24,240 nucleotides of DNA from Candidatus Woesearchaeota archaeon (GTDB lineage Archaea > Nanobdellota > Nanobdellia > SCGC-AAA011-G17 > PNOQ01). The notes beneath the pieces were generated by a model, which was not told the DNA's origin, did not search any database, and saw nothing but the letters and a program-made list of their open reading frames with translations. Location: contig JBDRML010000031.1 in NCBI GenBank assembly GCA_043812195.1, forward strand, positions 1 through 24,240. Reading direction: 5' to 3'. Both the position numbers and the translations under genes were made by a program. Shown in pieces: positions 1 to 22,917 of the stretch; position 1 is the stretch's first letter; the number at the start of each line of letters is the position of its first letter.

Positions 1-3000
1 TTTTCTGGGCCCGCGGGGGTTGGAAAATGTGTTTCTCCAAATACCCCTATTTTGGATGGAGAGGGTAAAATTTTATCTATAGAAGAAGCATATGAAAAAA
101 AGTTGAAATATGTTATGAGTTTAGATAAAAAAGGAAAGATAAGCAAGAATAAAATAGCCTATTTGTATAAAGGATATTCAAAAAAACTTTTGAAAATAAG
201 AACTCAATTCGGAACAAATATAGAAGTAACCCCTGAACATCCTTTTTTGGTTTTGAATGGAGGGAGATTAGAATGGATTGAGTCTAGAAATTTAAAAAAA
301 GGTATGCTCATTGCTTCCCCTGAAAAATTAGAGATTGAGCAAATGAAGAAAAATGGAGTTGCAATACCAGAAAGATTTTCTAAAGAGGGTGATTTTTATT
401 TTTATCATATAAATGGAAGATCATCTTGTAAGATTAAAATTCCTAAACTTGATGAAAATTTTTATTATTGGTTGGGTTTAGTTTTTGGGGATGGTAATTT
501 TAGAAATGCTAGTATAAGGTTTTATAATAATAATGATTTTTTGAGAAATAAATTTAGAGAATTATCTTCAAATATTTTCGGGAACAAGATTGAGATTATA
601 GAAGTGTATGATAATTGCCCATACATTGAAATTAGAAAAGCGACCTCAATAGTCAAATTTATAGAAGAAAATGTAGGATATAGTCTATGTAGAAAGAAAA
701 GTGGAATAATAAAAGCCCCGAGAGAGTTGTATACCTCTAAAAAGAAGAATGCATTATATTTCATTAGAGGATTGTATGAAACTGATGGTTCTTTTTATTC
801 TTCAACCCTTGAAATAGCCAGTATGAGCAAGGAATTATTAATTGATTTGAGGTATTTATTATTACGCTTTGGTATTCTTTCAAGAATAAAAAACAAAAGG
901 ATTCTTATATCTGGGAGTAATATGGTTGAACTATTTAAAGAAAAAATAAGTCCGTGTGTAAAAATTCCCGATAAATTGAAAAAGAATATAACGAATATTG
1001 ATGTTATGGGCATAAATAGAAAAGATATAAAAGCTATAATGAAAAACTTTAATATCCTTCATAGTGAATTAGGTGAATATTATGAACATATTTTTGAAAG
1101 AGGGATTGGTAGTAGAAAAAAAGTTAAGAAATTGTACTCTATTTTACTAAATTTGTCTAAAAATAAAATAAGAAGTGGATTGGATTTAATTTCTGAGCTT
1201 GAAACGATAAGTAATGTAGAAATTGACCCAAATTTAATATTTAACTTGTTTGAAGATAAGACTATCAGGAAAAATGTAGATATTGTAAGGTATGATAGAT
1301 TAAAAGAATATTCTGAAAAAAGAAGGACTCCTAATCTAAAAAATTATATTAGACTAATTAAAAGATTAAAAGAAATGAAACTATACTCTGGAGAAGAGTA
1401 TAATAATATTTTAAAGATTTTGAAAATTAGACAAAGAGTTATTGAAGTTATGAACGTGTTTGGTATAAGTTATAAGGAGATATTTCATGAATCTCAAGTT
1501 GCAAGTTCTTCAGGAGTTGTCAATATTCTTAATAGTAATGGACTTGCTCTCAAGAGTTTGAATAATTTAAAAACCATATTTGATTCTTTTAAAGGTATAA
1601 TTGAAAATAGACTATATAGTGAAAGATGTCTGGTAGCACTTGAAAATATAGATTTTTTACTAAATTCTCAGATTATTTGGGATAAATTAATTAAAATTGA
1701 AGAAATTGAGGGAGGAATAGTTTACGATCTTAATGTTGAAGGTGTCCATAACTTTATTGGTGGAAATAGTCCATTAATTTTGCACAATACTTCATTGGCA
1801 TTGGTTATTGCTAGGAGATTGTATGGTGAAAACTGGGGGCATAATTTTTTGGAGCTCAATGCGAGTGATGAAAGAGGTATTGATGTTGTTAGAAATAAAG
1901 TTAAGGATTTTGCTCGAACTAAGGCTATAGCTGATGTTCCATTTAAAATAATTTATTTAGATGAATGTGATTCTCTAACTAAAGATGCTCAACAAGCTTT
2001 AAGGAGAACTATGGAAACTTATTCTAATACTTGTAGATTTGTTTTAAGTTGTGTAACACCAGATACAAAGATCTTATTACCTGGTGAAAGAGAAATGACT
2101 ATAAATAACTTTATTGATCAGTATGAACAAAATACTAAAAATAAGCATATACAAAATGTAGCAAATGATCAAAATTCTATTAAAAAAGATTTGGTGCTTG
2201 CTACAGTAAAACTTTCTGCAAGTTCTATAGGCAAGAATGTATTGCAAATAACAACTATGACTGGAAGAAAAATTAAGTTGACTGACGATCATAAATTACT
2301 CACTGTGGAAGGATGGAAAAGGGCTGGAAAATTAACAAAGGACGATAGACTGTTAGTTTATCCTAATTTGGAAGGGTGTGAAGTTGAAGATAATAGTAAG
2401 GAAATTATAAATCTTAGTAAATTTATAAAATTTATATCCCGATCAGAAGAACGAGATGGTTTGCAAAAAATTGGTAAAGATGTGCGTTTTAAAAATTTAA
2501 AATCTGACGAGAAGGGAAAAATTCTTCAAAAAATAGATAAACTAAGAGAGATTGTAAAATCTGGTAAGGGGTTGACAGAAAGAGAATTAGAAGTGTATAA
2601 TATTATTAAGCATAATCAAAAAATTACTAGAGAACAACTGCAATATAGATTAAGAATTACTAGAATGGGCATTAATTACTTATTGCCTTCTTTAGAGAAA
2701 AAAGGATTTATAAAAAGAATTGTTAATAAAAAAACTCATTTATTTGTTACTTCTGAATTAAAGCCGATATGTCTTAGAAATGATATGCACATCAAAAGAA
2801 TAATTGAAAAGGAGTTTGGTATAAAAATCTCATATTCAGCTGTTAAAAAGTCTGTTGACTCTCTTGTAGAAAGAGGAAGAATTGATAGAATAATTGGTGA
2901 ATTAAAACGTAAAGAATTATTAGATATTTCTTATAATGATATTGATAAAATTGGTGCTTTAGCAAGAATTTGTGGTTTTATGGTTGGTGATGGTCATCTT

Positions 3001-4491
3001 GTTAAAAATGATATTAGACTTCATTTTTCAGGAAATAGATTAGCTCTTGAAGAAGTACAAAAAGATTTAGAAACATTAAATTTTAATAATTGTTCTAAAA
3101 TAAAATCTGTCAAGATAGAAAATAAAATAGGAGATAGATCTCTTAAAGGTATGAGTACGTCGTTTACATTTGATTCAAAAGCATTATCTTTACTTATTCA
3201 ATATTTAGGAATTCCTACAGGAGATAAAACAATAACACCTTATTGCGTTCCTGAATTTATTATTAATGGAACTAAATATGTGAAAAGAGAATTTTTAAGA
3301 GCCTTATTTGGTTGTGATGCCGATAAACCTCATTGGAAGAGAATGAATTATGGTGCAATTTCTTTGCGACAAAATAAATCTGAATTGCTTAAAAATCAAA
3401 TGTTAAAATATTATAAACAATTAAAAGACCTTTTTAAGGAGTTTGATGTTGAAACATATATCAATATTAGAAATAAAAATGAAGTAAGAACTAAAGATAA
3501 TGTTAGAGTACTTACTTTTGGGCTTATTATAACTCCCAATAATAAAAACTTGTTTAAATTTTTTTCAAGAGTGGGATATTTTTATGAAAAATATAAAGAT
3601 AAACTAAACCGTATTTCATCAGAATATTTGCGTCATAAGTTATATTTAATTGAATGTTTACAAGAAAAATCCCAACTAATTGTTGAATCTGTGAATGGCG
3701 GTTCTGGAATTAGAGAAACTGCGAGAAATTTAAATGTAAGCCCTGATTTTGTTAGCTTTCAAGTTCAAGGTAAAGATGTTCATTTACCAAGAAAGAAATT
3801 TGAGAATGTAGATGATTGGATAAAAAAATATCAATTTAATGATTCGCTTATAATTAATGATATTATGGATATCAAAAAATTGGAGGAAGATGAGGTAATG
3901 GACATTACTTGCCAAAAAGATCATAACTTTATAACAAACGGCTTTATTTCTCACAATTGCAACTATAGTTCTAAAATTATTGATCCTATACAAAGTAGAT
4001 GTGCTGTTTTTAGATTTAAACCTCTTGAAAAAGAAGATTTGAAAGATATACTAAAAAAAATCATTAAAAATGAGAAATTAAAAACTGATGATAAAGCACT
4101 TGATATATTATATAATATAAGTGGAGGAGATGCAAGAAAGGCTGAAAATATATTACAAGGATGTGCTGCAATAAATAATAAAATAGATGAAAAAGTAATT
4201 TATGAAGTTGCTTCTGCTGCAGAACCAAAAGAGATTATTGAAGTATTAAAATTAAGTGTGAATGGAGATTTTCTTAGAGCTAGAGATTTATTATTAGATA
4301 CTATGTTGAAACATGGTTTGTCTGGTTTAGATTTAATTAAACAGATACAGAAAGAAGTTATGAAATTAGATGTTGATGATAAAAAGAAAGTAGAAATGAT
4401 AGAGAAATGTGGCGAGATTGAATTTAGAATGGTTGAAGGTTCTGATGAATTTGTTCAATTAGAGTCGTTGATTGCTAGTTTTTGTAAATAA
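1..4491 (+). CDS. rfcS: Replication factor C small subunit precursor with two inteins; 5'-truncated by the window edge
   Basis: Frame 1 is open from base 1 (FSGPAGVGK|C...), so the track's TTG at 52 is internal. Spliced extein shows Walker [24 protein letters not shown], Walker [22 protein letters not shown]-like [30 protein letters not shown] and C-terminal [15 protein letters not shown]. Confidence 0.97.
28..1788 (+). mobile_element. Intein 1 in RfcS (587 aa) at the Walker A GK/T site, with LAGLIDADG endonuclease
   Basis: Begins CVSPNTPIL right after GVGK. Block [20 protein letters not shown] helices [11 protein letters not shown] and [11 protein letters not shown], block [13 protein letters not shown], ends LILHN with +1 Thr (TSLALVIAR). 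Confidence 0.95.
2050..3957 (+). mobile_element. Intein 2 in RfcS (636 aa) at the FVLS/CNY site, with LAGLIDADG endonuclease and HTH insertions
   Basis: Begins [10 protein letters not shown] after CRFVLS. Block [31 protein letters not shown] and [11 protein letters not shown], block [13 protein letters not shown], ends FISHN with +1 Cys (CNYSSKII). Confidence 0.95.
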
Positions 4492-11995: not shown

Positions 11996-13345
11996 ATGAA
12001 GTTCCTTAATAAAGTAAAGTTGTTTGTAATTTTAGTAAGTTTATTCTTAGTTCAGAACGTTTCTGCTGAATTGTATAGATTGGCTGATATGAGACCTAGT
12101 GGAATTGGTGGGTTTTTTAATTCTAAGGTTCCTTTTGGAGTATTTGGAGATGTTGGTTGGTGGATGATTGCTTTAATTTGGCTTTTTGTTTTTATTATTG
12201 GTTTTGTGAAGGGATTTAATAGGATGGGTTTAAATAACCGTGCTGCTGCCATTATTCTTTCTGCTATTACAGCTACTGTTTTTGTTGGATCCTCTTATCT
12301 TGATGAGTTCAGCATTATTGTTGCAATTGCTATTCCTGTTGCTATTGCTGGCTTTTTTATTGTTAATTCAATTAGGTGGGTTAGGGGTGGTGGAAAAAAG
12401 AAATATGCTGCTACTAAAATTATAAACAATATTGGGAAAAATCCTGAAAAGAAAGGTTGGTTCAAAAGAATGCTTAATAGAGAGGGTAGAACTGAGAAAA
12501 AATTGCTTCGTGAGATAAATAAACTCAGAAAAGAATTAAATTCTGGACCTGATAAAGATGATGATAAATATGAAAAATGGGCAAATGCAATGTCAGATGA
12601 AATTGCTTCTAACATTAATCCTCTTCTTGAAAGACTTGAATTATTAGAGACTAAAATGTATAGGCGTTTTAAAAGTACTAACAAAGCTTCTAGAAAAAGA
12701 GCTAAATATTTTAAAGCGAAATTAAATTCTATGGAAAGTGCTATTAGTTCTTTAAAAAGTGGAGATTCAGATGGTGCTGCTGATAAAATTGAAGAATTAA
12801 GACGTGAAATGAAAGATGATTATAAAAATTATGTAAGGATAGTTTTAAGAGAAATTGAAAAATTAGAAGGTAAGGTTGATGAATTAAAAGAAAAGATTCC
12901 TGGGGAGCCAGAAGAGAGTGAAGGTGATGAAGGATTGTCTGATGATGATGAGGAAGGAGAAAAAGAACCAGTAGAAAAAGCAGAAGGACCTGAATTTGTA
13001 AAACCAGAAAATATAATAGATAGTATGAATATAGGAGATTTGTATGGATATAAATCAAACACTGGACAAGAGATGTATGTTGAAATAAAAAATAAATATC
13101 CTGAAAGAAACGTTGTGCAAGTACAAAATGTTGCAGGTGGAACTATTTTTGCAATAAACCCTGAACAATTGTATGATGTTGGAAAGGGTGGACCTCAGGC
13201 TGTTAAGAGTCTTAAAAATTATTATGATAGCTTACGTAAAACTGCTATTTCTTTGCCTGAAGGAAGTAATGAAAAATTTGCTGTTGAAAATACTGCTAGA
13301 AAAATTCTAAAACAATTAGAAAAATATGGTTGGAGTCCTAGTTAA
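11996..13345 (+). CDS. Hypothetical membrane protein: signal/TM region, coiled coil, acidic linker, small beta-rich C-terminal domain
   Basis: ATG 11996 (MKFLNK; the track uses TTG 11987). Signal-like LFVILVSLFLVQNVSA, about 3 TMs, long K/E helical region, EPEESEGDEGLSDDDEEGEKE linker. Confidence 0.8.
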   Translation: MKFLNKVKLFVILVSLFLVQNVSAELYRLADMRPSGIGGFFNSKVPFGVFGDVGWWMIALIWLFVFIIGFVKGFNRMGLNNRAAAIILSAITATVFVGSSYLDEFSIIVAIAIPVAIAGFFIVNSIRWVRGGGKKKYAATKIINNIGKNPEKKGWFKRMLNREGRTEKKLLREINKLRKELNSGPDKDDDKYEKWANAMSDEIASNINPLLERLELLETKMYRRFKSTNKASRKRAKYFKAKLNSMESAISSLKSGDSDGAADKIEELRREMKDDYKNYVRIVLREIEKLEGKVDELKEKIPGEPEESEGDEGLSDDDEEGEKEPVEKAEGPEFVKPENIIDSMNIGDLYGYKSNTGQEMYVEIKNKYPERNVVQVQNVAGGTIFAINPEQLYDVGKGGPQAVKSLKNYYDSLRKTAISLPEGSNEKFAVENTARKILKQLEKYGWSPS

Positions 13346-14330
13346 ACCACTTATCTAAATTCTTCTGCTTTTTTTCTGAAACTTTTTCTATAATTTTATT
13401 TATTCTGTCTTCTGAGAATTCTCTTTCTGATAATATTTTAGTGATTTTGGCTATGTTTGGCGCTTCCCATTTTAATTGATAGTTTTTTATTATTGGCATG
13501 TTTTTGAAAGTTGCATATATTTTTTTCCAATTGAAATCTGCTTCTACGTTTTTGAATATTTCATCGAATTTTTTATGTTGCTGAACTAATTTTAATGCTG
13601 TTTTTGGACCTATTCCTTTTACTCCACCTGGATTGTAATCTGTTCCAACTAAAATTGATAATGCCATTAATTGATCTTGGTTTATTTTTAATTTTTTTAG
13701 TGTATATTTAAGCTCGACTATTTCTGGATAAACTTTCACGTATGTTCCTTTTATTTTTTTCCTTTGTGAAACTGTTAGGTTTTTGATAATTCTTGGGCCC
13801 CCATGTATCAAGCAATCAATGTCTGTTGTTGCGCATGCCCAAATATCTCCTTCTTGGTTCATATAAGCCAATTGTGCGTCTGCTTCTGAAATTGATTGTA
13901 TTATTGGTTGTCCCATGGCTTTAAGAAATTCTTTGGTTTCTTCCATCACTTTGTCTTCTATTTTTATTGTTTGTTTTACAAATTTTAGTTTTTCTTCTGC
14001 CGTTTTTGCATTAGATAGTTTTTCTTTCGCAATTTCTTTTCTTTCTGCCCTTTTCTTGATTTCTTGTGATTTTAATTCTGGTGGAACTCCATCAAGTATA
14101 AAACATAATTTAATTCCTTGTTCTATTAAATTTGGAATTCTTGTTGATAAACCCATCAAGTGAGATGTTACATTTCCTCTTGAATCCATTAGTGGTGTTC
14201 CATCTGGTTGTCTAATACTAGAAATAAATTGGTAGAGCATATTGCTAACATCTATTCCTATCTTTTTGCCTTTTAAGCTTTTTAGATCTATTTGTTTTGC
14301 TGTTATTATTTCTTTAAGTTTTACGCCCAT
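13338..14330 (-). CDS. fen: Flap endonuclease 1
   Basis: MGV...LKGKKIGID..NMLYQF..IRQPDGTPLMD..G.VTSHL.G, DG.PP, SEADAQ, D.D, LVGTDYNPGGVKGIGPKTAL (H3TH), C-terminal PIP box QKNLDKWF. Confidence 0.96.
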   Translation of the reverse strand: MGVKLKEIITAKQIDLKSLKGKKIGIDVSNMLYQFISSIRQPDGTPLMDSRGNVTSHLMGLSTRIPNLIEQGIKLCFILDGVPPELKSQEIKKRAERKEIAKEKLSNAKTAEEKLKFVKQTIKIEDKVMEETKEFLKAMGQPIIQSISEADAQLAYMNQEGDIWACATTDIDCLIHGGPRIIKNLTVSQRKKIKGTYVKVYPEIVELKYTLKKLKINQDQLMALSILVGTDYNPGGVKGIGPKTALKLVQQHKKFDEIFKNVEADFNWKKIYATFKNMPIIKNYQLKWEAPNIAKITKILSEREFSEDRINKIIEKVSEKKQKNLDKWFN

Positions 14331-15613
14331 TTTATTAAATTGTGTAATTGTTCTATTCTTTTTAACCTTTGCTGATTTATTATATTTATGTAATTAATTC
14401 CTTTTTTAGTTATAAAAAATCTGTGGGCCTTTTTATCTTGAGATATTTTAATTAAACCGTCTGATTTTGCTTTTTTAGAAATTTTTCTGAAATGATTTGG
14501 AGCCCTACTTTTATGGCCCATTTGATGATATAATTCATCTGTTTTTGGACTAATTTGACTTTCTTTTAATGTCTTTAATAATTTATATGTAAAATTATTT
14601 CTTTGAACATGATTCGAATTATCTATTTTTGGCCTAAGTTCCCTGTATCTATTAAGTCTTTTTTTATTATACTTAAATGGCTCAAAATTTAGTTTTTTTA
14701 AATTTGCCAAAGAGATAGTCAAAATGTTTTCTTTTCTAGAAGGAATTACTTTATTTAATCTACAGATTAATTCTAAAGTATCTAAAACTTTTTGATTATA
14801 CATCTCTATGCTAAAATCTTGTTTGTAATCTGAATTTCTGATATGTCCTTCTCCATCAGCCACTCCTTGAAAAAAACGCTCTGAGAATGATTGATTATTT
14901 GTTATTGATGGCAAAAGAATGTACTTAATTTTATCTATAATTAGCCTATGTATTGAACTATCTTTACAGGCTTCTATGATTAATTTGTTTCCTCTTTTTG
15001 ATTTTTGGATGTTTATTGTTTGTGGTGGAATTCTTAATCTTTTTTCTACTTTTTTAAGGGAATCTTCTGGTTTTAGATTATACAAATAAAAGTTTAAATC
15101 TTTCCTTTCGATTTGAAAATATTTTTCAATAAAATCTAAGAAGAATAAAATAATATTTATATCTGTATTAGTGATAGATACTCTTACTTTACGCTTAGTT
15201 TCGTTTTTCCCTTCTGCTAAGTATATTCCAATAAAATAAGCCAAATCATCTGTTATTTTTAAATATCTTGGAATTTTGTGTTTTTTCCCAGTATGTTTAG
15301 AAAAGAAGAGTACATTTTTGTAAATGGTTTTCTTATCTATTTTTAATTTTGATAATATTTTTTTTAATATATGTACTGGAATTGACGGTCTTTTATTTTG
15401 ATATTTCTTAAGATAGGTGGATGTTAAAATTTGTTGATTTTTTTTTGGAAATGCTAGTTTGGTAAATTGGTATATTGAGCTGTATTTTGACGCTATGTTG
15501 GATCTTAAATTAAGAATAAAATTATTCTTTAAGGTTACTGAGATTTTTTCGTGACAATTAAACATGAGTTCATATAAATCGATTTTTTTATCGGCTATTA
15601 TTTTTGTTGGCAT
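14321..15613 (-). CDS. Free-standing LAGLIDADG homing-endonuclease-like protein with N-terminal HTH-like region and C-terminal winged helix (about 430 aa)
   Basis: Two LAGLIDADG helices, DLAYFIGIYLAEG and ERFFQGVADGEG. No Hint blocks or terminal HN. C-terminus YKLLKTL...KKAKSDGLIKISQDKKAHRFFITKKG is wHTH-like. Start set at ATG 15613, 22 nt from TATA TTTATAAA (15636-15643). Confidence 0.82.
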   Translation of the reverse strand: MPTKIIADKKIDLYELMFNCHEKISVTLKNNFILNLRSNIASKYSSIYQFTKLAFPKKNQQILTSTYLKKYQNKRPSIPVHILKKILSKLKIDKKTIYKNVLFFSKHTGKKHKIPRYLKITDDLAYFIGIYLAEGKNETKRKVRVSITNTDINIILFFLDFIEKYFQIERKDLNFYLYNLKPEDSLKKVEKRLRIPPQTINIQKSKRGNKLIIEACKDSSIHRLIIDKIKYILLPSITNNQSFSERFFQGVADGEGHIRNSDYKQDFSIEMYNQKVLDTLELICRLNKVIPSRKENILTISLANLKKLNFEPFKYNKKRLNRYRELRPKIDNSNHVQRNNFTYKLLKTLKESQISPKTDELYHQMGHKSRAPNHFRKISKKAKSDGLIKISQDKKAHRFFITKKGINYINIINQQRLKRIEQLHNLIKWA

Positions 15614-15635
15614 GTTTAGTATATGGAAAAATGAC

Positions 15636-15675
15636 TTTATAAATAAACCGTTGGTGGTTGTCAACCTTGTCGACC
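15636..15675 (-). promoter_or_regulatory. Promoter of the LAGLIDADG gene with an upstream palindrome/tandem repeat
   Basis: TTTATAAA at 15636-15643; GGTTG-T-CAACC palindrome at 15656-15666; tandem TTGTCAACC/TTGTCGACC at 15658-15675. Confidence 0.55.
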
Positions 15676-15691
15676 TTTGTTGTAATTTAAA

Positions 15692-18001
15692 TTATTTAAA
15701 CCCAAATAAAGTAGTTTGTTTTGCTCCTTCTAATACTTCTTCGAATGTTGTGCCATATAATTCTAAAATTGAATCTGCTATTGGTTTTATTTGTTTGTCT
15801 ATATAATGTTGATAATCTAAATTATGTTTTAGTTCTTGGATTGGTTCTGGGCCTTCTGTTGTTTGATAATATTCTATTATATTTGATTCTAGTTTTTTTA
15901 ATTTACGGGCTGCTTTAATGTGTGGAGGTGTAGTTTTTGTATACTGATCCAAATCTTTTCTTATTGATTTTTTGTAAACTAATTGTTTATCTCTTTTCCC
16001 TGTGTTTATTTCTTCTACATATTTTTTTATGAAAACTGTAACTTCTTTTTTGTGGAATACTCTGTCTAATAATTCTTCCTGAAATTCTTTTGCTGCATCT
16101 GTCCAGTCTGATCTTCTAACTTCCAAACCTACAAATTCTATTTTTTCTTTACCATCTTTTAATAATAATCCTGCATATCTTTTTTTAGCACCTGCTTCTC
16201 CAGATCTTACTTTTGGCATTAGAAATCTTTTGTAACATTTTTCATACTCCATTTCTAAATAGCTTTTTCTCTTATATTTTACTTTGATTAAATTTTCATA
16301 GAATGAATTAATTTCATCTTGTAATTTTTTTCCTATTGCAACAGCTTCATCATAAGATTCTGTTTTAGTGTTTACAAAATTAGAATCTGTATCTTGATAA
16401 ATAACTTCATAGCCCTTTTGATTTATTCTTTCTCCAGTTTGTTTAATTATTTCCTGGCCAAAACTTGTGATTGCATTTGCTATTTTAGTGTTGAAAAATC
16501 TACAAGAAGGATTGGCCATGATCCCAAAGAACGAATTCATAAGTATCTTAATTGCGTATCTGCCTAACTCATCATTTGTTTTTCTTGCTTTTTCTCTGTG
16601 ATACCATAATTTCTGAATGATAATAGGCAAAATTCCATCTTCTGCTCTGAAGTATGCTCCGTTTGGTGATTTAATTGAATCTTTTTCTGGCTTTTCTAAA
16701 TAAGATGCTGGATCTAGATTAAAAGTTCTTATTATAGAAGGATATAGAGATTTAAAATCTAATACTACTATATTATCATATATTCCTGGACTAGATTCTT
16801 TTACAAATCCTCCCTTTATTGGTGCTAGTTTTTCTTTAAAGGAACCGGTTGGAGCTACTAATTTTTTCTTTTTTAATTCTTCTAAGTATAAAAAATCAAA
16901 TGATGCTATTGAAGCGTTTACTTTGTCTAATTGCATTCCAGTTATTAAACTCCTTCTTATTGCTAAATTCAATAACTCTGCTTCTGTTAAAATTCTATAG
17001 GCTAATTCTGAATCTAATAAATTGTATTCTAATAATTTTTTAATGTCTGTTTTGTATAAATTATCTATTTCTTTATATTTTTCTGGACCTGTTGATTCTA
17101 TTAATTTGGATTTTCCTAATAATTTCTTTGCTGCTGTGTTTAGTTTGTAATTTTCTAATTTAATGAATGAACTTTTTATTAAATCTAAACCGTCTAAAAC
17201 TAATCTTCCGTATATTGATGCTTTGCTTGTTCTGAAAAAGTTTGTTTCTAGACTTATTCTACACACTGAATTATCTCTTCCTAAAATAAAAGGTATTTCA
17301 TATTTCTTGAATTTTTCTTTTAAGTATACTAAATCAAAATCTATTACATTCCATCCTGTGATTATGTCTGGATCAAAATCTATTAATTCTTCCTGAAATT
17401 TTTCTAATAATTCTTCTTCTGATTTACAGCTTATTGTATCTGGATGGTCTGCTTTTCCAACTAAAAATGATTTTTTGTAATCTTTTGAATAAAATGAAAT
17501 ACAATATAATTCTTTTCCATCTGAACTTGATTCTACGTCTAATGATAGGACTTTTATGTTTGTTGGAAAATATTCTGCTGGCTTGATTTCTGGTTCTTTG
17601 TATACTCTGTCTATTTTTTCGTTTATTTCAAATTCTCCTTCAATTTCTATACTATTATGAATTTGATTATCTATTAGATATCTTATTGCAAATCTTACAT
17701 CTGCTTCGTAAGTTTTAATTCCGATTTCTTTTAGTTCGTCTCTTAATTCTGGAACCTCTTTTGGTATTGTTAATGTAATTTTCGTGACTTTTTCTCTGTT
17801 GAAATTTGTGAAATCTGTTTCTTCATAATCAAAATCTGCTAATTCTTTTGCTTTTTCTAAATCTGAAGTTTTAATATAGAAATATGGTTTTAATTCTGTT
17901 AGAGTTAGGAAGCTTTCTCCATTTTCTAATCTTCCGAATAGAGCAATGTATGCTTTTTTATCAAAAATCCTGTATGTTTGGTAAATTATGAATCCTTTCA
18001 T
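15692..18001 (-). CDS. polB: Family B DNA polymerase with proofreading exonuclease (Pol II-like), no intein
   Basis: ExoI LDVE, ExoII GWNVIDFD, ExoIII YNLLDS, motif A VLDFKSLYPSII, motif B KILMNSFFG, motif C YQDTDS, KKRYAG, GLEVRRSDW, C-terminal PIP-like QTTLFGF. Confidence 0.97.
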   Translation of the reverse strand: MKGFIIYQTYRIFDKKAYIALFGRLENGESFLTLTELKPYFYIKTSDLEKAKELADFDYEETDFTNFNREKVTKITLTIPKEVPELRDELKEIGIKTYEADVRFAIRYLIDNQIHNSIEIEGEFEINEKIDRVYKEPEIKPAEYFPTNIKVLSLDVESSSDGKELYCISFYSKDYKKSFLVGKADHPDTISCKSEEELLEKFQEELIDFDPDIITGWNVIDFDLVYLKEKFKKYEIPFILGRDNSVCRISLETNFFRTSKASIYGRLVLDGLDLIKSSFIKLENYKLNTAAKKLLGKSKLIESTGPEKYKEIDNLYKTDIKKLLEYNLLDSELAYRILTEAELLNLAIRRSLITGMQLDKVNASIASFDFLYLEELKKKKLVAPTGSFKEKLAPIKGGFVKESSPGIYDNIVVLDFKSLYPSIIRTFNLDPASYLEKPEKDSIKSPNGAYFRAEDGILPIIIQKLWYHREKARKTNDELGRYAIKILMNSFFGIMANPSCRFFNTKIANAITSFGQEIIKQTGERINQKGYEVIYQDTDSNFVNTKTESYDEAVAIGKKLQDEINSFYENLIKVKYKRKSYLEMEYEKCYKRFLMPKVRSGEAGAKKRYAGLLLKDGKEKIEFVGLEVRRSDWTDAAKEFQEELLDRVFHKKEVTVFIKKYVEEINTGKRDKQLVYKKSIRKDLDQYTKTTPPHIKAARKLKKLESNIIEYYQTTEGPEPIQELKHNLDYQHYIDKQIKPIADSILELYGTTFEEVLEGAKQTTLFGFK

Positions 18002-18911: not shown

Positions 18912-19153
18912 TGATACTTTACAGAATTGAATGCCTAAATAATTGTATTTATTATTTGAAAAGAAGAGATACTGGTGAAAAAATATTATGGCCTAATATT
19001 GGTTTCTTTTATTTTTTACCTAGATTTACTAAAAGACTTTTAGAAGATGAATGTGCTGCGTGTGTTGAATTTGATGGAAAGATGCCATTAGAAAATGAAC
19101 TTTTTTTGAGAGTTGTTATTGATTTAGCTAATGATAGATTTAGAAAAGATTAA
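18911..19153 (+). CDS. Small hypothetical protein (about 80 aa), translationally coupled to map
   Basis: TGATG stop/start overlap at 18909-18913; fills the gap to the cdc48 stop; no recognisable motif. Confidence 0.55.
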
Positions 19154-22100
19154 CCCATGTAAGAATGGGCTTCTCTTATTGCTGCTCCTCTTGCTGTTCT
19201 TATATATCTTTGTTCTATTTCTTCATAAGTTTTTATGTCTCTATCTGTTATTGATGGTTTGACTTTTTCAAGAGCATCTTTGAAATCTTTTGCTGTAATC
19301 TCTTTTGCTTTAATATCATTTCTTAATGCTAACATTCCTGCTTCTCTGCAAACAGCTTCAATATCTGAACCAACATAATTATTAGTTTGCTCTGCTAATT
19401 TTTTAATGTCTACTTGTTTTGATATTGGCATTCTTTTTGTGTGAACTTTAAATATCTCTTCTCTGCCTTTTTGATCTGGCACTGGAGTCATGATTATCCT
19501 ATCAAATCTTCCTGGTCTTAACAAAGCTGGATCTACCATATCTGGTCTGTTTGTTGCTCCGATAACAATTACATCGTGCAATTCTTCTAGACCGTCCATT
19601 TCAGATAATAATTGATTTACCATTCTTTCTGTTGATTTTGAACCTTGATCTGTTCCTCTTCTTGAGGCTATAGAATCTATTTCATCAAAGAAAATTATTG
19701 TTGGTGAGGCTTGTCTGGCTTTTTCGAAAATTTTTCTTATTCCTTTTTCAGAGTTGTGTGCAAATATTCCTCCAAATCCTGCTACGAAGTTTTGTCCATC
19801 TGGCACAGAGACATCATAAACATAATCCTCGTTGTCTATTACTTTTATTTCTTTTACTAAATCGAAAAATATATCTCCTTCAACCAAGTCCCAATATTCT
19901 TTGTACATTGATTTATCTTTATCTGCATAAACTAACATTTGTTTTAGTCTTTCTTTTCCGATTGTTAGGTTTGATTTTGGATTATAATTTTTAGTTGTTA
20001 AATCTAACAATGCTCCTGAGATTGGAATTAAATCTGATCTTGTCCACTTCCTTGAATTAATATATTTCCCAATTTTCATATTTCTACTTTTGTCAATGAA
20101 TCCTATATCTTTGAAATTCTCAAAATTTTTAACTCCAAAAATAATCAGTTGGTTTGTTGTTGATTCTGTTCTTTCTTTTTTCTCTCGCAAAAATGCAACT
20201 ATTCCAAAGTCAAGCAGCAAATACATTAAATCATTGGCAAGTTCCCTACTTACAGTTCCTGCTTCTAATCTGAATTTGCCTTTTTCGCCTTTTGGAATTG
20301 ATCCATCTCCGCTGAAATATCCTTTGAGAAAGTTTGATTTCGCTTCTTTGTCTAATGCAAATATAATATCTGGTATTCTTTTATTTTCTGCTCCTTCTTC
20401 TAATCCGAGAATGTTTTTGAATAATTTTTGAATTAAGAGAGAGTTTATTGTGAATGAATTTTCAAGTTTAGAAATACTGAATCCATATTTGTCAGCTATT
20501 TTTAATATATCTTCTCTTATCTCTGGGTTTGAATTATGTATTCTTACTGTATATCCATTAAAATCTCCTTCTGCTACCCAGATCCCCACTAATCTCCAGA
20601 AATCACTATTTATTTCTAATATTGGATTGTAGTTGTGCTTGCTACCTTTTAATTTTATTTTTATTTCATCATAGTTTATTCTTAATTTGGCCTCTCTCAA
20701 TAGTTTATCAAATGCTGTAATTGAGACTGGTAAATTTTTACTAATAATATCTGCTAAATATTTTTTTGAAATTCCTAGGATTTCTGAAGTTTTTTCTAGT
20801 CCAAGGATTAATTTTGCCCTAATTAAATAGTCCTTAGCTTTCCCTATAGAAACTGAATCATCGTTTTTGAATCCTTCATAAAGATTAATATTTTTCATCC
20901 TCTCTTTTGGTAAATTTAACCTTTTTGGTATTGCAATGTAGCTTTCGTTAGGTATTAAATGACTTGTTGGCAAGCTACCAAATTTTCCATTTACAAAAGA
21001 AAAAAGTGAATGGTCTGTAGTAACTTTAATTTTCCTTCCTGTTCTTGTAGTTATTTCCACTAATTTTGAAGTTAATGGGTGTTTTATGTAGTCATCTATT
21101 TTTGAAAATCCAACCCGTTTATCTTTGTCGAATGTTAATACTTCAATATCTTCTTTATTTTCTACTATATCTCCTATTTTCATTCTAATTATTTTGCCAT
21201 CTTTTTTTACTATTAACTCTTCATTGTAAGGCAATGATTCTCCAACCCACATAGATACTAATTCTGGACCTTTTACATTAATGAAGTTAGCTTCTGATTC
21301 GTTTGCTACTGCTTTAGCTAATAGAGTTTTACCTGTACCTGGCGGACCATAAATCAATACTCCCTTTGGAGGTTTGATTCCCATTCTTTCAAATGCGTCT
21401 TGGTTTTTTAATGGCCATTCAATTACTTCATGTAGTTCTGTTTTTAATTTATCTAAACCACCAATGTCTTCCCATTTTGTATTTGGTTTTTCAACTAAGA
21501 CTTCTCTCATTGCAGAAGGTCTTACTATTTTTAATGCTGATTTGAAATCTTCATCTGTGATTTTTAATTTATCTAATGTTTCTTTTGGTATAGTTTGTTT
21601 TTCTCTTAATTTAATATCTGGTAATGTTCTTCTTAGAACATTCATAGCTGCTTCTTTAGCTAGTGCTTGTAAATCTGCACCAACAAAACCATGTGTAATT
21701 TTTGCCATTTCTTCTATGTTAACTGATTTTGTTAATGGCATGTTTCTTGTATGAATTTTTAAAATATCTGATCTGCCTTTTTTGTCTGGAACTCCAATAA
21801 CAATTTCCCTATCGAATCTTCCTGGTCTTCTTAATGCTGGGTCTATTGAGTTTGGCCTGTTTGTTGCTCCGATAACTACTACATTTCCTCTCTTGTTTAG
21901 ACCATCCATCATAGCCAATAATTGTGCTACTACTCTTCTTTCAACTTCTCCATGAGTCTCTTCTCTTTTTGGTGCTATTGCGTCTAATTCGTCTATGAAA
22001 ATTATTGATGGTGCTTTTTCTGCTGCTTCCTCGAAAATCTTTCTAATTCTTTTTTCAGATTCTCCATAAAATTTATTCATGATTTCAGGACCGTTGATTA

Positions 22101-22917
22101 AGATAAAATTAGCTTCTGATTCATTTGCTACTGCCTTTGCTAATAGAGTTTTTCCTGTACCTGGTGAACCGTGTAAAAGAACACCTTGAGGAGGATCTAT
22201 TCCTAAAGCCTGGAATATTTCTGGATGTCTTAATGGTAATTCTACCATTTCTCTTATTTTTTTAATTTCTTCATCTAATCCACCAATGTCTTCGTAAGTT
22301 ACATCTGGTAAAATTAATTCATCTTCTGTTATCTGCATTGCTTTTGGACTTACTTTTATTTCTGTATTTTCAGTGATTATGATTGGGGTGCCTGTTGGTG
22401 TGGTTTCAGCTACTATGAATTTCAAACTTCCTATTGAACCCATAAAACCTTGTTCAAAAATTTCGAAGATATCTTCAAATGGACTTCCTGAGAATGTAGA
22501 TCGTCTTCTTCTTCCACCACCTAATGCAACTATGTCTCCTTTAACTACAACTCTTCCTAATAATCCTTTTGTGAATATGCCTGGATCTGCTTGAATCATG
22601 ATACCTTGCTGTGAAGGTGCTACTGTGATTTTCTTAGCTTCTTTAACATCAGCTTTTCTAATTTTGACTTGTTCTCCAATACCTGTTTTTGCGTTTCTTC
22701 TTACAATACCATCCATTCTTATGATGGCTTCACCGACATCTGAAGGATATGCTCTGTCCACAATACCTACTGTTTTTCTTCCACCTTCTATTTCAACTAT
22801 GTCTCCTGCTCTAACACCTACTTCTTTCATAAATTGAGAATCAACTCTAATAATTCCTTTGTATGCTTCTTCTTGCATAGCTTCTTTTACTCTTAAACTG
22901 GTTTCTTTATTTGCCAT
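19150..22917 (-). CDS. cdc48: Cdc48/VAT (p97-like) AAA+ ATPase precursor with one intein (760 aa after splicing)
   Basis: N-domain IRMDG..R.NA. D1: [46 protein letters not shown]2: [36 protein letters not shown]. Confidence 0.97.
19753..21237 (-). mobile_element. Ser1 intein (495 aa) in Cdc48 D2, with LAGLIDADG endonuclease
   Basis: SMWVGE|[10 protein letters not shown]; block [11 protein letters not shown]; [12 protein letters not shown] and [11 protein letters not shown]; block [13 protein letters not shown]; IFAHN|SEKGIR. Removal restores WVGESEKGIR. Confidence 0.95.

Follow-up and report, generated by a model that had tools for sequence, protein, structure and literature searches.

A free-standing LAGLIDADG gene at the fen1 start of a Woesearchaeota archaeon: a probable homing-type endonuclease under the promoter type of the recombinase gene radA

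The window analysed here is a stretch of 24,240 nucleotides (nt) of contig JBDRML010000031.1 (assembly GCA_043812195.1) from a Candidatus Woesearchaeota archaeon, whose minus strand carries, in this order, a family B DNA polymerase gene (polB, 15692-18001), an endonuclease open reading frame (ORF) and the flap endonuclease gene fen1 (13338-14330). Our analysis indicated that the gene between them is probably, though by no means certainly, a homing-type selfish endonuclease that targets the start of fen1 and is transcribed from the promoter type of the recombinase. This reading was adopted because the protein fold, the retained acidic residues, the empty sites in related genomes, the recurrence at one site, a decayed copy and a swarm of similar genes in the same genome all fit it. 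The genome (938,338 bp, 29.5% GC), that of a groundwater archaeon, is labelled G000; other G numbers denote compared genomes, L numbers the loci that were read and P numbers matches from a search of representative sequences. The features of the locus, with amino acids abbreviated as aa and AlphaFold2 as AF2, are as follows.

15692..18001, minus strand: family B DNA polymerase, upstream neighbour (Pfam DNA_pol_B 1.5e-41).
15625..15680, minus strand: shared promoter module, with two 9-nt repeats (15655-15672), an ACCACC spacer and a TATA-like box (15632-15644) (nhmmer E 6e-14).
14321..15613, minus strand: free-standing LAGLIDADG endonuclease gene, predicted 430 aa from ATG (ORF, module spacing, homologue start).
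15263..15613, minus strand: N-terminal helical domain, residues 1-117, with helices at 13-20, 30-44, 47-54, 58-67, 80-90 and 94-98 (AF2).
14621..15262, minus strand: LAGLIDADG nuclease core with two motifs, residues 118-331 (Z 17.1 against PI-PfuI, 14.1 against I-DmoI; PDB profile matches).
15209..15238, minus strand: motif 1, YFIGIYLAEG, residues 126-135, acid E134 (translation, conservation in alignment A2).
14846..14875, minus strand: motif 2, FFQGVADGEG, residues 247-256, acid E255 (alignment A2; aligns to the second motif of PI-PfuI/PI-PkoII).
14333..14605, minus strand: MarR/PadR-type winged helix (residues 337-402) and long terminal helix (403-427) (PDB profile ~1e-4; Z 10-12).
14321..14330, minus strand: overlap of endonuclease stop and fen1 start, 10 nt, ATGGGCGTAA (ORF list and sequence).
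13338..14330, minus strand: fen1 flap endonuclease, downstream neighbour and presumed homing target region (Pfam XPG_I 4e-23, XPG_N 1e-17).

The reading frame is open from a TTG (14321..15664, 447 aa) and from an ATG (14321..15613, 430 aa). The ATG at 15613 was taken as the start because the TTG falls within the second promoter repeat, because the distance from the start of the module to the ATG, 66 nt, falls in the range of 64-67 nt of seven G000 sister genes whose module match starts at model position 2-3, and because the homologue alignment also starts there. The query alone remained under all Pfam cut-offs (LAGLIDADG_3 E 0.044; F-93 winged helix E 0.047) and a word-indexed homologue search returned no matches for the 430-aa protein. 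Exhaustive comparison with 1.84 billion representatives yielded 51 matches at E <=1e-3 and nine at <=1e-30, the latter being full-length or nearly so with 30-40% identity, except for a 124-aa fragment (P0001) that is 99% identical to the query. Alignment A1 comprises the query and 27 of the 51 matches (28 rows), leaving out P0001 and 23 weaker matches (P0019, P0021, P0023, P0026, P0029, P0031, P0033-P0042 and P0045-P0051), and alignment A2 comprises the 11 closest sequences, whose profile was used for the order-wide, phylum-wide and collection searches.

PF14528 matched 23 of the 28 A1 members, and the A1 profile compared with the PDB retrieved PI-PfuI (1.7e-10), PI-PkoII, I-Tsp061I and I-DmoI, while its positions 310-405 retrieved MarR-family chains (best E 1.6e-4). 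AF2 modelling on A1 gave a pLDDT of 91.6 and a pTM of 0.89, in comparison to a pLDDT of only 35.6 from the single sequence. Residues 118-331 of the model matched PI-PfuI (Z 17.1), I-Tsp061I (14.4), I-DmoI (14.1) and WhiA (14.1), with Foldseek probabilities of 1.00 to bI3 maturase, I-AniI and I-DmoI, and the two LAGLIDADG helices pack where two alpha-beta-beta-alpha-beta-beta-alpha half-domains meet, as in monomeric two-motif enzymes. Residues 337-430 matched winged helices (Z 10-12), including RosR (12.0), MarR in its DNA complex (11.3) and PadR, in agreement with Foldseek, so that profile, structure matches and AF2 secondary structure all point to a MarR/PadR-type winged helix, with three helices and a beta-hairpin wing. 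The structural model describes a monomeric LAGLIDADG endonuclease that has two motifs and, beyond the nuclease core, two further domains. Among the 11 A2 sequences, E134 is kept in at least 90% and D253, G254, E255 and G256 are invariant; the motif acids of PI-PkoII and PI-PfuI are the aligned counterparts of E134 and E255. The Intein_splicing model, which does recognize inteins elsewhere in the window, gave no match to the protein up to an E of 1; the gene lies between polB and fen1 with a start and a stop of its own and lacks splicing blocks.

An initial annotation made from the sequence had described a free-standing gene between polB and fen1 with two acid-retaining LAGLIDADG helices, a C-terminal winged-helix-like segment and no splicing domains, all of which was borne out, and the structure prediction it proposed recovered both the LAGLIDADG and the winged-helix folds. 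Its N-terminal helix-turn-helix (HTH) fared less well. Residues 1-117 are confidently folded and mostly helical, and sister genes match Pfam HTH_3 or HTH_38 at their N-terminal ends, but the segment gave no profile or fold match and whole-model structure searches barely cover it; it is possibly a degenerate Xre-type HTH. The N-terminal helical domain and the C-terminal winged helix are both probably DNA-binding.

Comparison of the polB-fen1 junction in relatives, likewise proposed in the initial annotation, revealed patchy presence of the gene and clean empty sites, which supports homing. FEN1 was found in 39 of 41 related genomes and PolB in 38 of 41, and in 21 of 24 same-family genomes polB is followed by fen1 on one strand. 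Three family genomes could not be assessed: the polB of G006 is only 32% identical and lies on the opposite strand, polB was not recovered from G018, and fen1 was not recovered from G023. None of the 21 assessable junctions holds the endonuclease gene: 12 have a spacer of 34-46 nt and nine have 326-3297 nt of other cargo, with junction sequences read in 15 genomes and the remaining six judged by coordinates only. The A2 profile gave no subfamily match at any of the 21, and G021 has a second polB-fen1 locus with 4-nt spacing. At empty sites a TATA-like box lies immediately after the polB stop, ~20 nt before the fen1 ATG. Read by eye from the translations, the cargo included one ORF whose N-terminus resembles a winged helix together with a hydrophobic-looking ORF, another whose start is NAD-binding-like, and histidine-phosphatase-like ORFs. 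It also included a NUMOD3 protein, in some cases accompanied by a reverse transcriptase. The polB-fen1 junction is a general landing site.

In G021 and G010 (L016, L017) the junction insert of 3.3 kb consists of a NUMOD3 gene behind the promoter module of that lineage, a 275-aa ORF without a Pfam family and a reverse transcriptase gene (RVT_1 6.5e-25). The G007 junction holds a NUMOD3 gene plus other cargo.

Across the order, full-length subfamily members were found in two of 240 genomes (G000 and G143), and a phylum sample of 401 genomes yielded one genome with a member, G000 itself, and no further members. The conserved presence and synteny within a clade that characterize a WhiA-type factor were thus not observed, and the endonuclease gene is not a fixed part of the replication cluster. 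The site is occupied in G000, in L033 of G143, and in L032 and L037, and is empty or otherwise filled in the 21 assessable family genomes; this presence/absence polymorphism at one site was seen between genomes, not within a single population. Groundwater metagenome contigs from three runs bridge junctions of the occupied allele (X1 both sides, X3 the fen1 side, X2 the polB side), and no contig in four runs joins polB to fen1 across the gene, the pieces (~150-1600 nt) being too short for inference.

Collection scans with the A2 profile recovered three distinct contexts outside G000, and in all three the gene ends on or overlaps the fen1 start, with a stop/start overlap of like kind. The first (L033, identical to L036 and L038, and P0002 in the representative search) has polB, two unrelated genes and a 454-aa homologue (34% identical) with an 11-nt fen1 overlap. 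The second (L032, identical to L035) has a 443-aa homologue (36% identical) with a 10-nt overlap. In the third (L037, or P0007) the 5' frame is broken and the winged helix is lost in frame, yet the remnant still overlaps fen1. More distant copies with stop codons were found in G006 (C13) and G001 (C23). Because the upstream neighbour in L037 is an AAA ATPase gene and two genes intervene in L033, the fen1 start is the constant partner. The initial annotation had offered a homing element targeting the polB-fen1 junction as one of two options; the mobile endonuclease fits better than its alternative, with the target shifted from the junction to the fen1 start. A duplication of fen1 or polB ends inside the endonuclease gene (mORF type) was not found (best BLASTP E 0.14).

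The gene at fen1 belongs to a much larger set. G000 contains 26 PF14528 matches, of which 13 fall in open frames 213-428 aa long and the others in frames of at least 1068 aa, and free-standing LAGLIDADG copies number ~14 when the fen1-start gene is counted. These copies adjoin genes for topoisomerase I (topA), the leucyl-tRNA synthetase LeuRS (leuS), eIF2-gamma/S6e, RpoH-RpoB, a class I W/Y tRNA synthetase (trpS or tyrS), thymidylate kinase (tmk) and L37ae/L11. The motif-2 acid is kept in all 12 alignable G000 copies, two of which have lost the following glycine. Distant free-standing relatives across the order adjoin top6A (8 of 19 loci), topA (3) and glyS (2), and singly ppsA, fen1 and others.

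Intein hosts were confirmed among the long frames for the replication factor C (RFC) small subunit, Cdc48 and RadA only. The RFC small subunit has two LAGLIDADG inteins and Cdc48 has one (window 1-4491, plus strand, and 19150-22917, minus strand), and RadA has two on G000 contig 3 (L101 980-4963). The endonuclease load of G000 is very heavy, at ~14 free-standing and ~10 intein-borne genes in 0.94 Mb. The top6A of L049 (G082) has a convergent free-standing LAGLIDADG neighbour and also an intein splicing-domain remnant (PF14890, 2.8e-7, below the cut-off).

Upstream of the fen1-start gene, the repeats GGTCGACAA (15664-15672) and GGTTGACAA (15655-15663) are followed by the TATA-like TTTATTTATAAAG (15632-15644), and the palindrome GGTTGACAACC occupies 15653-15663. 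The TATA box, palindrome and 9-bp tandem were present as the initial annotation had described them. A 16-mer spanning the repeats, GTYGACAAGGTYGACA, occurs nine times in G000, far above the expectation of 0.0005 under a base-composition model, and was found zero times in each of 20 first-order Markov simulations. The module of which it forms part extends over ~50 nt, with two GGTYGACAA repeats, a spacer, the TATA box and an ATG ~20 nt behind it; this last distance implies a probably leaderless transcript. A profile built from eight full copies, which recovers those eight by construction, found six weaker copies in addition, giving 14. Ten of the 14 precede free-standing LAGLIDADG genes, the fen1-start gene among them, and when the 12 further ORFs behind module copies were scanned, nine gave a Pfam LAGLIDADG_3 match, in two cases a weak one. 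One further copy precedes a small conserved ORF followed by radA (Rad51 1.2e-75), one precedes a 44-aa ORF and a metallophosphoesterase gene, and two precede ORFs without a Pfam family. A one-repeat variant, detected by eye, stands before three more short LAGLIDADG genes.

Contig 45 of G000 (~49480-49512) carries the same repeat word outside a promoter context, in an array of three tandem GGTTGACAA units and then GGATTGTCAGGGTTGTCAGGG that lacks a TATA box and an ORF at the distance typical of the module.

The radA copy of the module has counterparts in most genomes of the family. A small ORF precedes radA in 24 of 25 family genomes, and a tandem repeat with spacer and TATA box lies <=230 nt upstream of it in 18 of the 24. 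An inserted gene fills that space in five family genomes, and G006 shows no repeat promoter. The radA-promoter repeat word varies by lineage, being GGTYGACAA in G000, TTGACAY in G010, G018 and G014, CTTGCCA in G005, G019, G009, G011, G003 and G015, and TTGTCAT in G017 and G002. Endonuclease promoters carry the host's own word in G000, G010/G021 and G007. In G010 and G021, TTGACAYNTTGACAY occurs seven times each, in comparison to once for the reversed control, and stands in front of the radA operon, a metallophosphoesterase operon and genes for NUMOD3 and LAGLIDADG proteins. CTTGCCA/CTTGTCA is the word at the junction NUMOD3 gene and at a LAGLIDADG gene of G007, and also at the radA promoter of its congener G001. 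A module of like build, with TGGACAGATGGACA, a GC-rich spacer and a TATA box, was found in G098 and G099 of another family (8 and 7 copies, in comparison to 0 in controls), where the module loci (L131-L145) precede four LAGLIDADG genes, three Bro-N genes, one KilA-N gene and one Lhr-type helicase gene.

The genes inserted before the radA operon lie at L121 (G021) and at L159, L161, L162 and L163 (G023, G020, G007 and G012). In G021, the one genome in which the inserted gene was read, the module lies in front of it, and it encodes a 287-aa cysteine-rich protein without a Pfam family; a similar 287-aa gene stands behind the module in G098 (L145). Between the TATA box and the start codon of the small ORF preceding radA, nearly all family genomes (L146-L169) share a conserved leader with a consensus near TGAAATAAGATGCGAAAGCAAGGAGG, sometimes present twice, which lies ~30-60 nt before that ORF and contains a possible GCGAAAGC hairpin.

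Taken together, this pattern favours a module that originated as an ancestral host promoter type and was taken up by selfish genes. A further and more tentative reading, which we would not yet prefer over its negation, is that the radA operon promoter also drives the swarm of selfish nuclease genes, in a cellular regulon that hard-wires homing endonucleases to the recombinase. Equally tentatively, this regulon would cover LAGLIDADG and NUMOD3 genes in G000 and G010/G021, alongside the like-built module of G098/G099; the repeat word changes with the lineage (GGTYGACAA, TTGACAY, CTTGCCA, TGGACAG).

In the mechanism that we propose, the predicted enzyme would cut fen1-start alleles without the gene, and RadA-dependent repair from an occupied allele would copy the gene in. 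The insertion would split the recognition site, and the carrier would therefore be immune. One trans-acting factor may read all module promoters, in which case the synthesis of the endonuclease would be tied to the synthesis of the recombinase needed for its homing.

Several points weigh against the homing interpretation. The cleavage target was predicted from position only. An intact 430-codon frame in a genome of 29.5% GC shows selection for the protein, and that selection could reflect a host role; two possibly DNA-binding accessory domains and a stop overlapping the fen1 start would also be expected of a domesticated regulator. Divergence of the endonuclease runs parallel to that of FEN1 (72% in comparison to 73% for L032/L037, and 32-37% in comparison to 43-55% for deep pairs) and therefore gives no sign of recent horizontal transfer; long vertical residence with many losses might explain it equally well. 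A hint of co-conversion at the fen1 5' end, where residues 1-30 of G000 FEN1 are 60% identical to G036 and L033 in comparison to 43-57% within its own family, amounts to few residues and is too weak to use. Finally, the module before radA might be left over from a previous insertion and not be a host operator; in five family genomes a gene is inserted between the radA promoter region and the operon.

The second option of the initial annotation, a domesticated regulator embedded in the replication cluster, was little supported. Such a DNA-binding factor, kept by selection in the manner of WhiA or yeast HO and controlling, for example, fen1 or the replication cluster, would account for the intact frame, the confident fold with its winged helix and extra N-terminal domain, the place of WhiA among the best structural matches, the stop overlapping the fen1 start in four lineages and the divergence in parallel with FEN1. 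The gene is however absent from all 21 assessable family junctions and from 400 of 401 phylum genomes, a degree of dispensability that would not be expected of a host function. Both catalytic acids are conserved, the same-site copy in L037 has decayed, and the gene is one of ~14 sisters that adjoin unrelated conserved genes. We consider domestication improbable on these grounds.

Just as improbable in our estimation is a spent element, that is, a former homing endonuclease retained because its insertion removed the TATA box of fen1 and left fen1 relying on read-through. The fen1 TATA that directly follows polB at empty sites has lost its spacing in G000, where a clear TATA is missing from the region 25-30 nt upstream of the fen1 ATG. 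No fen1 promoter was discernible in the AT-rich 3' end of the gene and no box is conserved there across the four lineages, and the decayed copy of L037 remains on the fen1 start. A stop-free frame of 430 codons, an invariant DGEG and a conserved AEG would nevertheless not be expected without selection on the protein, and the dedicated promoter module is intact.

A private autoregulatory site, as the initial annotation had proposed for the palindrome and tandem, is the least probable of these alternatives: although the protein has a winged helix that might bind its own upstream repeats, as I-TevI of T4-like phages represses its own promoter (PMC2988022), no fewer than 13 other G000 genes have the same repeats upstream, among them short LAGLIDADG genes without a winged helix, and the radA tandem-repeat promoter is present in 17 other family genomes without a full-length subfamily member. 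Because the repeats precede many genes, and radA in genomes lacking the endonuclease gene, any cognate factor must be common to all, and because the radA copy is conserved in those genomes the protein is not the dedicated regulator of the module.

Textbook examples of free-standing homing endonuclease genes come from T4-like phages and organelles, and the homing endonucleases known from the chromosomes of cellular archaea are mostly encoded in introns or inteins. The protein described here shares with I-DmoI, I-Tsp061I, PI-PfuI and PI-PkoII the two-motif fold and an acid ending both motifs, although sequence identity to archaeal intron and intein endonucleases is only 12-17%; those enzymes sit in rRNA introns or inteins, whereas the fen1-start gene is separate and adds an N-terminal domain and a winged helix. 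Bacterial WhiA, a transcription factor, likewise combines a LAGLIDADG scaffold with a C-terminal DNA-binding domain, and Pfam LAGLIDADG_WhiA matched seven of the 28 family members. WhiA is not known to retain the catalytic acids and has a different HTH, in contrast to the fen1-start family, which keeps both acids, has a MarR/PadR winged helix and is patchy, not universal, in its clade. Yeast HO, also free-standing, is a LAGLIDADG enzyme to which a DNA-binding domain has been added, and a host promoter controls it; it keeps intein-derived parts, which the fen1-start protein lacks, and serves mating-type switching in a eukaryote. There is also a likeness to the seg and mob genes of T4-like phages ('intronless homing'), which according to PMC2988022 are free-standing, lie between conserved genes, are patchy in distribution and are integrated in the host transcription programme. 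Those genes are of the GIY-YIG or HNH type and reside in phages, whereas the present ones are LAGLIDADG genes of an archaeal chromosome, many copies of which share the radA module. The same source argues that late expression of phage homing endonucleases coordinates them with the repair machinery. In the portions of the literature retrieved by our search, no report of free-standing LAGLIDADG genes in DPANN archaea or Woesearchaeota, nor of endonuclease promoters shared with radA, was found.

A 0.94-Mb genome with ~14 free-standing copies beside conserved information-processing genes, most of them under one module that is also the recombinase promoter, gives these observations wider interest. 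If the coupling is true, it would explain in a testable way how selfish nucleases match the timing of their cuts to host repair capacity, and would provide a candidate operator for a regulator of recombination genes in uncultured archaea with small genomes. Frequent DNA exchange among these cells would also be implied, because ~14 free-standing and ~10 intein-borne endonucleases are unlikely to persist otherwise. In practical terms, the family may supply compact LAGLIDADG enzymes with two add-on putative DNA-binding domains and guessable targets in the form of the empty junctions.

A further LAGLIDADG frame was found within an apparent tRNA gene on contig 29 of G000 (~46190-46920; L105 6198-6925), which by eye appears to be split by an intron of ~680 nt. 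Neither ARAGORN nor Rfam called this gene, and ARAGORN reported no tRNA in the window or in L105. The acceptor ends of the two parts match each other, the T-arm reads GGTTCAAATCC and the anticodon loop is CTTTTAA, possibly of Lys-UUU specificity; the intron holds a 211-aa LAGLIDADG ORF (Pfam 1.3e-9).

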